Origin: Candidatus Peribacteria bacterium
GTDB lineage: Bacteria; Patescibacteriota; Gracilibacteria; Peribacterales; Peribacteraceae
Direction: 5' to 3'
Assembly: GCA_012515645.1 (NCBI GenBank)
Contig: JAAYXY010000012.1
Span: forward strand, 1 to 28,160
DNA length: 28,160 nucleotides
Shown here one piece after another: positions 8,231-15,127 of this stretch. The position numbers and the translations under genes are program-made. The notes under the pieces were generated by a model. That model had not been told where the DNA came from, made no database searches, and saw only the letters and a list, made by a program, of their open reading frames with translations. Position 1 is the stretch's first letter; each line of letters opens with the position of its first letter.

Positions 8231-9001
8231 TTACCGCGAGGTAGAAACGATTTTTACAGAGGAGTGTTTTCTGGATGACTTGTGGGGTGCGGGTGCGTTT
8301 TTTTTAGTAGGGCGCTCATTCTTGCGTTCCGGAGCGTACGAACCCACGCTGTCACGCGCCACGCGTCCCGCTTCCAGGCGGATAACGCGTGTTTGCAGAG
8401 CATCGACGATGGTTGTGTCATGTGTGGCGAGTATCACCGTGGCGCCGTGCTGGTGCATTGCCCGGAAGAGGTCCAGGATCCGCATGGATTCTTGGGGATC
8501 TAAGTTCCCCGTCGGTTCGTCGGCAAGCACGATCATGGGCTTGTGGACGATCGCTCGACCTATTGCAGTACGCGCTTTCTCTCCACCAGAGAGCGCGTGG
8601 CAGAGCACATTGCACCGGGATGCCATGTCCAGTGCTTCCAGTACCTCCCCGACGCGCTTGGTGATGGTGGTCATGCTGGCGCCGCATATTTCCAATGGGA
8701 AGGCGACGTTCTCTGCAACGGTCCTGTTCCAGAGGAGTTTGTAGTCCTGGAATACCACGCCGATGCGCCTGCGGTACATCTGCAGCGCGCGCGGCGGAAC
8801 GCGGCGCAAATCCACGCCGTCCACATGCACACTGCCGGCTGTCACGGTCTCCGCGCCAATGAGCACATGCATGAGTGTGGTCTTGCCGGCGCCGCTGGGC
8901 CCCGTGATGCAGACAAACTCTCCCGGCCGGATATCAAAGCCGATATCCGTGAGGACGGCGCGCTGGCCGATACGACGGGATACATCCTGGAGCGAGATCA
9001 T
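8231..9001 (-). CDS. ftsE: Cell division ATP-binding protein FtsE
   Basis: GPSGAGKT, RRRIGVVFQDYKLL, LSGGE, IVLADEPTGNLD, GATVILATHD. Confidence 0.88.
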   Translation of the reverse strand: MISLQDVSRRIGQRAVLTDIGFDIRPGEFVCITGPSGAGKTTLMHVLIGAETVTAGSVHVDGVDLRRVPPRALQMYRRRIGVVFQDYKLLWNRTVAENVAFPLEICGASMTTITKRVGEVLEALDMASRCNVLCHALSGGEKARTAIGRAIVHKPMIVLADEPTGNLDPQESMRILDLFRAMHQHGATVILATHDTTIVDALQTRVIRLEAGRVARDSVGSYAPERKNERPTKKNAPAPHKSSRKHSSVKIVSTSR

Positions 9002-9054
9002 GGTGCTCAGTATACGGATGCGTGTGCCATTGCCACATTGTGGGATTCCAAGAA

Positions 9055-9699
9055 TTATTCACTGGTTTCATTGTGGCCATGGCGGGATTTGCCACTTTTA
9101 CGTGCATTTCTCTGTTGCAGAATGAGGTAAATTTCGCGGCTCCTGTCCCTGCTGGCCTGTGCGATGTACGTTCGAACGGATTGCCACTCACGCTTGAGCT
9201 CACAGAGGAATGTATCGAAATCCGCTCCGCGGAGGACTTTCATGACGCACGTTCCCCCCGGGACCAATATCGCTTGCGCAATGCGTGCCACAGCCTGATT
9301 GAGTTCGATGGAACGCCATTGATCTATATCCTTGATGCCGCTGGTATTGGGTGCGATATCCGAAAGCACCAGATCGACAGTGTGGATGCCTTGTTCCCGA
9401 AGGGTGCCCAGGAATGCCTCGTAGTCCGTAATATCTTGTTCGATTGTGCGCACATTTGCCGCCACAGGATCAATTGGTTGCAGATCTGCTCCGATCACGA
9501 GTCCTTTTTCGCCCACTTCCTGTGCGGCGATTTGCAGCCAACTGCCAGGTGCGGCGCCTATATCCAGGACGGTGTATCCGGGCTGGAAGAGCTGGAATTT
9601 CTCGTTGAGTTCCAGCAGCTTGTACGCCGAGCGCGCACGGTACCCTTCGCGCGCTGCGCGCTGCGACCATCGGTCGTTGGGTTGGTACGGCTTGGGCAT
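9055..9699 (-). CDS. rlmE: 23S rRNA Um2552 2'-O-methyltransferase RlmE (FtsJ/RrmJ)
   Basis: GYRARSAYKL, LDIGAAPGSW, VLSDIAP, ASRDRSREIY. Confidence 0.93.
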   Translation of the reverse strand: MPKPYQPNDRWSQRAAREGYRARSAYKLLELNEKFQLFQPGYTVLDIGAAPGSWLQIAAQEVGEKGLVIGADLQPIDPVAANVRTIEQDITDYEAFLGTLREQGIHTVDLVLSDIAPNTSGIKDIDQWRSIELNQAVARIAQAILVPGGTCVMKVLRGADFDTFLCELKREWQSVRTYIAQASRDRSREIYLILQQRNARKSGKSRHGHNETSE

Positions 9700-9772
9700 G
9701 GGGGCAGTATGGAGGAGGGGAAAGGGAGAGGGGAGTGCGAAGAGAAGAAAAATGTTTCCTCTGTTCGATGTT

Positions 9773-10456
9773 TCACATCACAGGTTTCTTCTTCGCTTCG
9801 CCGACTGCGCGGGGAAAACGTTCCGGGGTCTTCGCCATTTTTTCGAATACGAGTATCTGTCTCCTTCCGAATCCGTCTGCGAGTTCGTATTCGTGTTTCT
9901 GTACCAGGTGGCAGCTAAGTTCCGCGCGGGCGAGCAGGGAATCCTGCAATTCTTGTTCAATGTGTGTGCTCTTCCAGGCGAGCAAACAGCCGCCGATACG
10001 CAGGAACGGCGCAGCGTATTCCAGGAGGGTGTGGAGCGGTGCCACGGCGCGCGCAGTGACGGCGTCGTACTGCGCGCGATGTTCTGTGTTGCGCCCCAGA
10101 ATTTCCGTGCGCTCGCAGAGGAGTGTGATGTTTTGCAAATTCAGTGCATGGACAATGCGTTGCACGGCATCGATCTTCTTCCTCGTCGCATCCAGCCCCG
10201 TATGGTGTGCACCGGGCAGGCAAATAGCCAGTGGCAAAAGGGGGAAACCGCCGCCGGTACCGAGATCGAGCCACCGGTTGGCGCGGCGCTGGGGGTTTTG
10301 CGTCATGTATTCCACGGCCGCCAGGCTGTCGAGTACGTTGCCAGTCCAGCACTGTTCCGGCGTCCGGAATGCAGAGAGGTTGAGTTTTTGGTTTTCTGCA
10401 AGAAAGACTTTCATAAGGTGCCGGAGTCGCTCTTCGCAGCCGGGAGGAATGTGCAT
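9773..10456 (-). CDS. rsmG: 16S rRNA m7G527 methyltransferase RsmG (GidB)
   Basis: LNLSAFR, VLDS, LDLGTGGGFP, TARAVA, LAWKS. Confidence 0.93.
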   Translation of the reverse strand: MHIPPGCEERLRHLMKVFLAENQKLNLSAFRTPEQCWTGNVLDSLAAVEYMTQNPQRRANRWLDLGTGGGFPLLPLAICLPGAHHTGLDATRKKIDAVQRIVHALNLQNITLLCERTEILGRNTEHRAQYDAVTARAVAPLHTLLEYAAPFLRIGGCLLAWKSTHIEQELQDSLLARAELSCHLVQKHEYELADGFGRRQILVFEKMAKTPERFPRAVGEAKKKPVM

Positions 10457-14046: not shown

Positions 14047-14496
14047 TTAATACTGCGCTTTCACATTGGCAATCCGTTCTTCCACTTTCTTGCGCAGGTC
14101 GGCATTGTTTTCCGCCAGGATGCGCACGGCTGCAAGCGCGGCGTTCTTGGGATGCAGGACTGTCATGAGTGGTACATCGGAAGGCATGCGCAGACTGGAG
14201 TGGATATCGACTGAGTACTCGTCGTAGCTGGTGATGGGGGGGCAGTTCACCACGGGGTGCACGCAGCTTGCAGCGGCTACACCGCCCAGACCGTTGCTCA
14301 TACCTACGACCGTGATGACCACCTGAGGCTCTGGATCGGCATTGAGCGTATTGATGATCTCGATGACTTTTTCCGGGACCTTATGCGCGGAAGCAACGAT
14401 GATATCGTTGGCAATGCCAAATTCGGCAAGTACGGCGGTGATTTTTTCCGCAAATTCCGTATCGCTCTTGGAACCGAGTAGCAGGGTGACGTGCAT
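14047..14496 (-). CDS. purE: AIR carboxylase PurE, class II-like
   Basis: LLGSKSD, VASAHK, VVGMSNGLGG, SSLRMPSDVP, NAALAA. Start is ATG 14496 or 14505. Confidence 0.9.
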   Translation of the reverse strand: MHVTLLLGSKSDTEFAEKITAVLAEFGIANDIIVASAHKVPEKVIEIINTLNADPEPQVVITVVGMSNGLGGVAAASCVHPVVNCPPITSYDEYSVDIHSSLRMPSDVPLMTVLHPKNAALAAVRILAENNADLRKKVEERIANVKAQY

Positions 14497-14527
14497 AGTG
14501 CCCATAGAATATCTATGTATGGAGAAG

Positions 14528-14557
14528 GCGGCAACCTCCATGTGTGGAGATTGCCGC
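14528..14557 (-). other. 13-bp hairpin immediately downstream of tRNA-like element
   Basis: On the minus strand gcggcaatctcca-caca-tggaggttgccgc (one G.U pair). The U-tract is weak, so this is a processing or attenuation hairpin rather than a clear terminator. Confidence 0.6.
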
Positions 14558-14562
14558 ATCAA

Positions 14563-14641
14563 GTGTAGTGGAGGGAGTTGAACCCCGATCTTCCCTCACG
14601 CGCGGCGAGGGACGCATTTCCCGACTATGCTATCCACCACA
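14563..14641 (-). ncRNA. tRNA-like RNA with non-canonical (9/3 or 8/4) cloverleaf
   Basis: TGTGGTGGA-TA-GCAT-AGTCGGGAA-ATGC-G-TCCCTCG-CCGCGCG-TGAGGGA-AGATCG-GGG-TTCAACT-CCC-TCCACTACA-C. The fold is clear; expression and function are not shown. Confidence 0.6.
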
Positions 14642-14699
14642 TGCGGGCATTGTGCTGGCGCATTGTTGCACGTCAAACATTTGTCGGAGTTGTTGGTGT

Positions 14700-14798
<99 letters not shown>

Positions 14799-15012
14799 AC
14801 GGTGATGACAAAGATACAGTATCGATGCGGATGGCTAGAGCACAGCAAGTGCAATACATTTTTATTGCTCGGATTCTCAAGAGAATCCTCGACTCCACTG
14901 GAGCTCTTACCTCCACAGTGATGATGAAAGAACGAGGACGATAGATACATCGATTTTGTGTCGCGAAGCGCGGGTTTCCCGCGCTGGAGCGACTCCTTGT
15001 AAAGGGAGGGGG

Positions 15013-15045
15013 GCACGTGGGGGAAACCGTAGGTTTCCCACGCGC
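15013..15045. repeat. Imperfect palindrome downstream of tRNA-Arg
   Basis: gcacgtgggggaaacc-gta-ggtttcccacgcgc. Confidence 0.6.
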
Positions 15046-15049
15046 AGGA

Positions 15050-15127
15050 TGGTGCGCCCGGCAGGATTCGAACCTGCGGCCTCCTGGACCGCAACCAGAC
15101 GCTCTATCCGGGCTGAGCTACGGGCGC
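15050..15127 (-). tRNA. tRNA-Arg(GCG)
   Basis: GCGCCCG/CGGGCGC acceptor, TCTGG-TTGCGGT-CCAGG anticodon arm, GGTTCGAATCC, encoded CCA. 78 nt. Confidence 0.95.

Follow-up and report, generated by a model that had tools for sequence, protein, structure and literature searches.

A candidate non-decoding tRNA look-alike with alanine identity marks in Peribacteraceae genomes

Staphylococci possess non-proteinogenic tRNA-Gly species, which act as donors for FemXAB and keep a normal anticodon arm. The allo-tRNAs are a further group of unusual bacterial tRNAs (Mukai et al., 2017, PMC5389517; reviewed in PMC7609411), some of which carry G3:U70 (PMC7609411). According to the same review, G3·U70 is the major determinant for alanyl-tRNA synthetase (AlaRS), the anticodon is not read by this enzyme (PMC7609411) and acceptor minihelices are charged by AlaRS through G3·U70 (Hou and Schimmel, 1988, cited in PMC7609411). 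In this study, a tRNA-Ala-like RNA encoded on the minus strand at positions 14564–14640 of contig JAAYXY010000012.1 of Candidatus Peribacteria bacterium (an ultra-small bacterium of the Candidate Phyla Radiation, family Peribacteraceae; 28,160 nucleotides, the whole of which is referred to as the window) was characterized using covariance models and covariation. An earlier note, made from the letters of the window, had described a tRNA-like cloverleaf at 14563–14641 on this strand, which was confirmed in the sequence. No published description of such an RNA was found in full-text literature searches. On balance, we lean towards reading the element as a small-RNA gene that stands alone and encodes a tRNA look-alike with alanine identity and no decoding role.

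The element extends over 77 nt from G1 (14640) to the discriminator A73 (14564), and the minus-strand sequence of 14641–14563 is UGUGGUGGAUAGCAUAGUCGGGAAAUGCGUCCCUCGCCGCGCGUGAGGGAAGAUCGGGGUUCAACUCCCUCCACUACAC. In the window, ARAGORN called three tRNAs (Gln, Ala-GGC and Arg-GCG) and made no call on the element; Rfam at gathering thresholds and default filters returned the same three tRNAs only and also missed it. With permissive filters, the Rfam tRNA model (RF00005) reached 29.7 bits at 14565–14639 (gathering score 29) through an alignment in which the anticodon loop carries a 10-nt insertion and T-stem pairs are broken, and the canonical 7/5 reading therefore scores poorly, as anticipated. 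The real tRNAs of the same assembly (G000; 0.75 Mb, 123 contigs, 78% complete) score 49.7–77.7 bits with this model. The tmRNA (transfer-messenger RNA) models reach only 18 bits on the element, and a separate standard ssrA (tmRNA) gene with a tag peptide is present elsewhere in G000. Folded as a single sequence, the element forms a cloverleaf of −31.6 kcal/mol (z = −2.24; 3/200 shuffles), which exceeds chance only modestly, and the case for more than chance is a comparative one.

Homologues were collected from Peribacteraceae genomes (G labels) and from individual loci or contigs (L labels). The closest relative, the Logan contig L004, has the element in the same place, next to a PurE that is 95% identical to that of G000; the two copies differ by the change of U2-A71 to G2-C71, by a 1-nt D-loop indel and by A57 to G57, their anticodon arms are identical and their flanks differ by large indels. 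A first covariance model (R1), built from these two copies, found G129, G168, G107 and G088 in other genera, and a second model (R2) added G115, G160 and G026; the G000 element scores 108 bits with R1 and 92.6 bits with R2. A metagenome pattern scan yielded one true member (L178) and two chance matches, a pattern scan of genome contigs was too loose and gave chance matches only, and four more copies (G218, G215a, G215b and G066) came to light when 109 purE upstream regions were surveyed. These 14 copies are the basis of the counts given below. The family thus comprises at least 14 copies, from approximately 11 of 200 Peribacteraceae genomes and two metagenome contigs. The other families of the class, sampled with 135 genomes, yielded no family member, the matches being of canonical size and below 50 bits and not inspected individually. 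A phage origin was also considered, and 0 matches to the element were found among 50,697 phage records.

In the family consensus, the acceptor stem has 7 bp and one extra base precedes U8; the D arm and the elbow are normal, and the T stem has 4 bp. In the window, where the element and its flanking features lie on the minus strand, the 5′ acceptor strand GUGGUGG (14634–14640, with G3 at 14638) pairs with the 3′ strand CCACUAC (14565–14571, with U70 at 14567), as given by the acceptor table and covariation. The extra base, A14633, lies between acceptor position 7 and U8; it is A or C in nine of the 14 members, in which the junction reads AUA (the 3-nt form in G000), AGA or CGA in place of UA. 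The D arm GCAU-AGUCGGGAA-AUGC, with G18 and G19, occupies 14614–14630, and three of its four stem pairs change on both sides among the members. The T arm GGGG-UUCAACU-CCCU (14572–14586), assigned by parse and covariation, has four pairs, the outer of which is G·U, with position 49 left unpaired, and it is preceded by the 5-nt variable loop AGAUC. U8, A9, G18–G19 and the T loop UUCAACU had all been listed in the earlier note and are present in the sequence, as is the D arm GCAU/AUGC, and the variable loop of 5 nt agrees with its remark that a long variable arm is lacking. The 9/3 or 8/4 fold that it proposed was not sustained: the outermost U:A pair of that fold (14641/14564) is C·U in L004, position 14564 aligns with N73 and the family has a 7 + 4 arrangement, in which a mismatch may or may not be present. 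The stack of acceptor and T stem accordingly has 11 bp in G000 (7 + 4) rather than the preserved 12 bp that had been claimed, and the kinship with allo-tRNA folds falls because the argument from a 12-bp 9/3 or 8/4 helix fails. In G000, the extra A14633 could alternatively pair with U14572, which corresponds to the eighth or ninth pair of the former model.

Covariation was counted on a model-fitted alignment of 12 members, which leans towards structure owing to this fitting; slid controls and an independent parse agree with it. Alignments made with MAFFT misregistered the acceptor strands and were excluded from the counts. In the model-fitted alignment, standard pairs fill 99.6% of cells, and 16 of the 22 pairs are altered on both sides, in 70 such cells that are spread over all four helices. 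None of 500 shuffles reached any of the five covariation measures, and pairing fell to 44–62% when the 3′ partners were slid by 1–3 columns. The search for homologues near purE and the covariation check, both of which the earlier note had suggested, thus gave a positive outcome. As judged from these aligned sequences, purifying selection, accompanied by compensatory changes, maintains the acceptor stem, the D arm, the elbow and the T arm. The view that the element is not the result of random decay was hence borne out by homologues in several genera and by compensatory changes in four helices, and not by the conserved 12-bp helix on which it had been based. Outside the anticodon arm, the G000 and G129 bodies share ∼93% identity, compared with ∼95% for the tRNA-Ala(GGC) genes of the two genomes, whereas the flanks are unalignable (hand count).

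The arm at the anticodon position (14592–14612), assigned by fold and parse, is the sole freely varying part of the RNA; it differs completely between members, yet it always pairs. In G000 and L004, it has a stem of 7–8 bp with the loop CCGCGCG or CGCGC and no U33, and the 7-bp stem, the loop CCGCGCG without U33 and the missing CCA are all found in the sequence as previously described. The stem is 11 bp in G129 (loop CUCUAA) and L178 (UCAC), 8 bp in G107 (CUCG), and 6 bp in G160 (GCU) and G218 (UUU); it is 8–9 bp in G168, with the loop UUGUACA (7 nt) or UGUAC (5 nt), and 7 bp in G026, with an 8-nt loop. The arms of G088 and G115 are bulged and have 38 and 51 nt in all, respectively. Across the homologues, the arm ranges from 15 to 51 nt and its loop from 3 to 11 nt, and no anticodon is common to them. 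All seven modelled stem pairs of this arm covary, and the changes between the stems of G129 and L178 are compensatory. A canonical 5-bp anticodon stem with a 7-nt loop containing U33 and a shared anticodon does not occur as a feature of the family. Because the arm is conserved only as a hairpin of any length and loop, with no shared anticodon, the RNA cannot read codons; ARAGORN forces Lys, Ser, Ile or '???' on some family members. The best complementary stretches within ±700 nt of 15 elements were no better than those of shuffled arms, duplex energies within ±400 nt of eight elements were inside the shuffle range, and no neighbouring RNA complementary to the arm or to the element as a whole was found in these regions. 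An intron or insertion in a normal anticodon loop was also considered and was rejected, since the arms of G160 and G218, with 15 nt, fall below the normal length and there is no shared hidden Ala anticodon.

The alanine identity marks lie in the acceptor stem. All 14 copies carry G1-C72 as well as G3·U70, the AlaRS identity pair (14638/14567 in G000). The other acceptor pairs vary over the same copies: pair 2-71 takes five forms (GC, CG, UA, AU and UG), pairs 5-68 and 6-67 four each, pair 7-66 three and pair 4-69 two. The outer T-stem G·U provides an internal control, being GU in seven copies, GC in four and AU in one. A G·U that is needed only for pairing is expected to drift, as the T-stem pair does; G3·U70 does not drift. 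The discriminator N73 is A in nine of the 14 copies, including A73 (14564) in G000. According to the alignment of members, the RNA is followed by the 3′ trailer CUU (14561–14563), where canonical G000 tRNAs have CCA. CCA is encoded in none of the 14 members, position 74 is C in 12 of them, and 36 of the 37 ARAGORN tRNAs of G000 end in CCA. The host genomes retain canonical tRNA-Ala genes for UGC, GGC and CGC, all with the acceptor GGGGCUG/CAGCUCC and encoded CCA, whereas the look-alikes mostly have GNGGAGG-type stems. The tRNA-like gene is thus an extra gene beside the full canonical tRNA-Ala set, and a replacement of tRNA-Ala(UGC) was rejected because the hosts keep this gene. A tRNA-His (8-bp acceptor with G-1:C73), which is missing from the assembly, was likewise rejected as an identity for the element: the frame misfits, there is no usable GUG loop and the canonical tRNA-His of a relative merely cross-scores.

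The surroundings of the element suggest a transcription unit of its own. A promoter-like site, TTGACG-16-CACAAT (14649–14676), whose function is presumed from its sequence, ends 8 nt before G1, and most members are preceded by a TTGAC-type −35 box and by a −10 box within a few bases of the 5′ end. Directly after the RNA, a 12-bp hairpin, GCGGCAAUCUCC/GGAGGUUGCCGC, is present at 14528–14557; the earlier note had seen this hairpin and counted 13 bp. Its U-tract is weak in G000 (CUUCUCC), and a terminator scan found none there. A clear U run comes after the equivalent hairpin in G160, G066, G026, G168, G115, G088 and the arrays of genus g97, and a short one in G129 and L178. The alternative pairing of 14642–14646 with 14554–14558 that had been pointed out exists in G000; it is not retained in L004, in which the 3′ flank differs, and it involves bases upstream of the likely transcription start.

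The next gene downstream is purE (14047–14496, minus strand; 149 aa; PF00731 homologues, with best matches in Peregrinibacteria/Peribacteraceae). Upstream on the same strand, as stated earlier for tRNA-Ala, lie canonical tRNA-Ala(GGC) (14722–14798; ARAGORN, and Rfam with 66.1 bits) and tRNA-Arg(GCG) (15050–15127; ARAGORN and Rfam). Throughout the family, tRNA-Arg(GCG) and tRNA-Ala(GGC) are syntenic with purE as a neighbouring pair, in either orientation (14722–15127 in the window; loci L180–L279), and most of the surveyed purE genes have only these two tRNAs nearby and no tRNA-like RNA. Arginine is read by a GCG tRNA in G000, and an ACG tRNA was not found in the G000 assembly. Nine of the 14 copies of the tRNA-like gene lie 47–230 nt upstream of purE on the same strand, and a tenth, G215b, is in the same array without adjoining purE. 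The G168 and G026 copies are near tRNA-Met and divIC, and the G088 copy is at yet another locus. A −10-like box just before the purE ATG in G000, G129 and G115 fits purE being transcribed separately from the tRNA-like RNA.

Enzymes that could act on such an RNA were searched for in five host genomes (G000, G129, G168, G115 and G088). AlaRS, the CCA-adding enzyme and RNase P RNA are present in all of them. RNase Z was not found in these five genomes, while nearly all of their tRNA genes encode CCA; neither RqcH (NFACT_N) nor aminoacyl-phosphatidylglycerol synthase (aaPGS) was found in them. FemAB (PF02388) scores above the cut-off in all five hosts, apparently with two or three genes per genome as judged by contig positions. 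The AlaRS open frames have 576–663 aa, and E. coli AlaRS, at ∼875 aa, is longer. In G000, the CCA-adding enzyme is encoded on contig C57 and AlaRS on C43, and the clear FemAB genes are on contigs other than that of the window (C79, with one paralogue at 8890–9852, C34 and C121). A 300-aa protein encoded at 1074–1976 on the plus strand of the window, which had been noted as CelD/FemAB-like, matches only PF13480 (GNAT, 38.7 bits).

On the reading that we favour, the transcript would start at or 1–2 nt before G1 and its 3′ end would be trimmed; CCA would then be added, followed by recognition and probable alanylation by AlaRS. As the RNA has no anticodon, the alanine would be held outside decoding. 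It could then serve as a donor for non-ribosomal alanyl transfer, for which the FemAB type is the only tested candidate class present, or the RNA could buffer AlaRS or serve as its decoy. A functional tRNA mimic, which had been suggested from the G000 sequence, is the best reading from the homologues and covariation. Several observations weigh against the favoured reading. The spread is patchy, with approximately 11 of 200 genomes carrying the RNA and congeners of G129 and G115 lacking it, and the RNA is therefore dispensable. Broken tRNA-Ala copies are found at the same locus (L249 and L225), so that duplication and decay of tRNA-Ala do occur there. Five members have a discriminator other than A (U, G, G, C and G). 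The search models contain the G·U, and weak matches are slightly biased towards it; the strong members score 54–79 bits, which is far above the contribution of one pair. FemAB is present in 199 of 200 family genomes, with or without the tRNA-like RNA, and its co-occurrence is thus uninformative. Furthermore, a free acceptor end is an assumption because CCA is unencoded and RNase Z was not found, and the terminator hairpin might stay attached to the RNA.

A more specific proposal is that of a dedicated, ribosome-invisible alanine carrier, namely an anticodon-shed tRNA-Ala paralogue with a changed acceptor that is reserved for, for example, FemX-type peptidoglycan bridge synthesis. Anticodon loss is possible in such a carrier only because AlaRS ignores the anticodon, and we hold this proposal tentatively, with more doubt than belief. 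Slow decay of a tRNA-Ala duplicate without a function of its own would account for the patchy spread and absence from congeners, the lack of an encoded CCA, the Rfam score at the threshold, the truncated or insertion-bearing tRNA-Ala genes at the same locus (L249:232–294 and L225:328–441) and one weak read joint that points to a relative without the element; anticodon-destroyed copies would survive in this case since a working non-alanine anticodon would mistranslate. However, neutral DNA, as represented by the flanks, is unalignable at a divergence at which the body remains largely identical between genera, most pairs have undergone compensatory changes on both sides, G3·U70 never varies whereas the other G·U drifts, the promoter and terminator are retained, and 1-Mb genomes hold little junk. 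A plain pseudogene is unlikely because of the covariation, and the slow-decay account as a whole is considered unlikely. A tRNA that decodes through an unusually extended anticodon arm, for example in recoding or quadruplet reading, seems very improbable: G168 has a 7-nt loop with U33 (UUGUACA), G026 has an 8-nt loop and ARAGORN assigns anticodons to some members, but the loops of other members have 3 (G160/G218), 4 (G107/L178), 5 (G000) or 6 nt (G129), the arms of G088 and G115 reach 38–51 nt, there is no common anticodon, and the G000 copy lacks both U33 and a purine at position 37.

The RNA may instead be a tRNA-shaped decoy or regulator that is bound and never charged, titrating AlaRS or RNase P or acting as a stable structured RNA, with G3·U70 serving for binding only. 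A free CCA end may never form, given that CCA is unencoded and RNase Z was not found, a strong hairpin stands right at the 3′ end, and a precedent is provided by tRNA-Other of Bacillus cereus, which is reported to be a non-translating pseudo-tRNA with a cellular phenotype (PMC3399842). On the other side, the CCA-adding enzyme is present even though 36 of 37 canonical tRNAs encode CCA, C74 in 12 of 14 members fits a trimmed end being completed, and no regulatory target is evident; we regard an uncharged decoy as improbable. Finally, a cis-acting leader or processing module of purE would be co-transcribed with the gene, cut by RNase P and other nucleases, and would set the level or 5′ end of the purE mRNA. 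The position of nine copies shortly upstream of purE on the same strand fits such a module, as does RNase P RNA being present, and read-through is conceivable in G000, where the downstream hairpin has no U-tract. In most copies, however, a U-tract terminator precedes purE, the −10-like box before the purE ATG (G000, G129 and G115) fits a separate promoter, the G168, G026 and G088 copies are at other loci, approximately 100 purE genes of the family have no element, and G3·U70 is not needed by RNase P. The cis-regulatory role that the earlier note had listed among its possibilities is weakened by the members' own promoters, by terminators that mostly have U-tracts, by the four copies that lie elsewhere and by the many purE genes without the element, and it now seems quite unlikely.

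Other odd tRNA genes were observed at these loci and elsewhere. In genus g97 (L246:158–415, minus strand; L224:241–418, plus strand), two or three odd tRNA genes with one promoter and terminator lie upstream of purE; these arrays consist of alanine-type look-alikes followed by a tRNA with the anticodon AAU, which is unusual for bacteria, and one copy has C33. In G107, a second tRNA-like gene (L012:1152–1233, minus strand) lies 184 nt downstream of the alanine-type gene; it has a 9-bp anticodon stem with a 5-nt loop, its G1-C72, C2-G71, G3-C70 and U73 are not of the alanine type, a TTGACA promoter and a terminator of its own are present, and ARAGORN calls it tRNA-Lys(ttt). Of the broken copies, the one in G028 (L249:232–294, minus strand) is a 63-nt tRNA-Ala(GGC) fragment without a D arm upstream of purE and is a plain pseudogene remnant, and the one in G008 (L225:328–441) is a tRNA-Ala(GGC) with a 52-nt insert in the D region. 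Outside the window, G000 has a tRNA-Leu(CAA)-like gene (C63:10517–10611, minus strand) whose D loop contains a GC-rich hairpin of ∼20 nt as an insert and which has a G3·G70 mismatch; the Rfam tRNA model gives it 26.8 bits and ARAGORN misses it. A similar D-region insertion is present in G136 (L025:1501–1585). In G022 (L013:1501–1664, plus strand), a second copy of tRNA-His, with a broken 5′ acceptor strand, lies 12 nt after a canonical one. The DNA contigs over this locus of the window contain identical copies only, apart from one weak joint that lacks the element: in a contig of run X5, position 14497 is linked directly to 14722 without the tRNA-like gene and its spacer, with 23 letters on the shorter side, and this contig may come from a relative whose tRNA-Ala borders purE.

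Charging, if it occurs, would make this RNA a natural full-size tRNA body retained for the acceptor end alone, equivalent in a living cell to the experiments with alanine minihelices, and would represent a new way to split the aminoacyl-tRNA pool between translation and other chemistry. On a more modest reading, a conserved non-decoding tRNA-like small RNA would be a new RNA family in the 1-Mb genomes of the Candidate Phyla Radiation (CPR), whose non-coding RNA repertoire is almost unknown. For annotation, it is relevant that such genes fall at the limit of what tRNA finders detect and are either overlooked or assigned spurious anticodons.

Among the known systems, canonical bacterial tRNA-Ala shares G3·U70, G1-C72, A73 (in the G000 copy) and a full cloverleaf with a D/T elbow with the tRNA-like RNA, which also adjoins tRNA-Ala(GGC) and is probably derived from a tRNA-Ala gene. 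Unlike tRNA-Ala, it has no anticodon loop, an extra base before U8, a 4-bp T stem, an acceptor of the GNGGAGG type in place of GGGGCUG and no encoded CCA, and its Rfam score is 29.7 as opposed to 66 bits. The tRNA-like domain of tmRNA (RF00023) likewise combines an alanine-identity acceptor and T-arm module with the absence of anticodon decoding; however, tmRNA has no D stem and contains pseudoknots and a tag frame, whereas the present RNA is a 77-nt cloverleaf with a covarying 4-bp D stem. The staphylococcal tRNA-Gly species resemble it as extra isoacceptor-like genes beside a full decoding set in genomes that encode Fem-type transferases, but the tRNA-like RNA has lost the anticodon arm proper and FemAB is universal in its family. 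The allo-tRNAs are comparable as non-canonical bacterial tRNA-like genes; they have a 12-bp acceptor–T branch, a long variable arm and a working anticodon loop (Mukai et al., 2017, PMC5389517; PMC7609411), in contrast to the 7-bp acceptor, 4-bp T stem, 5-nt variable loop and missing anticodon found here. The B. cereus tRNA-Other is reported to be likewise a chromosomal tRNA-like gene retained outside translation, and differs in its lysine-related identity and in having kept a tRNA-like anticodon arm (PMC3399842).

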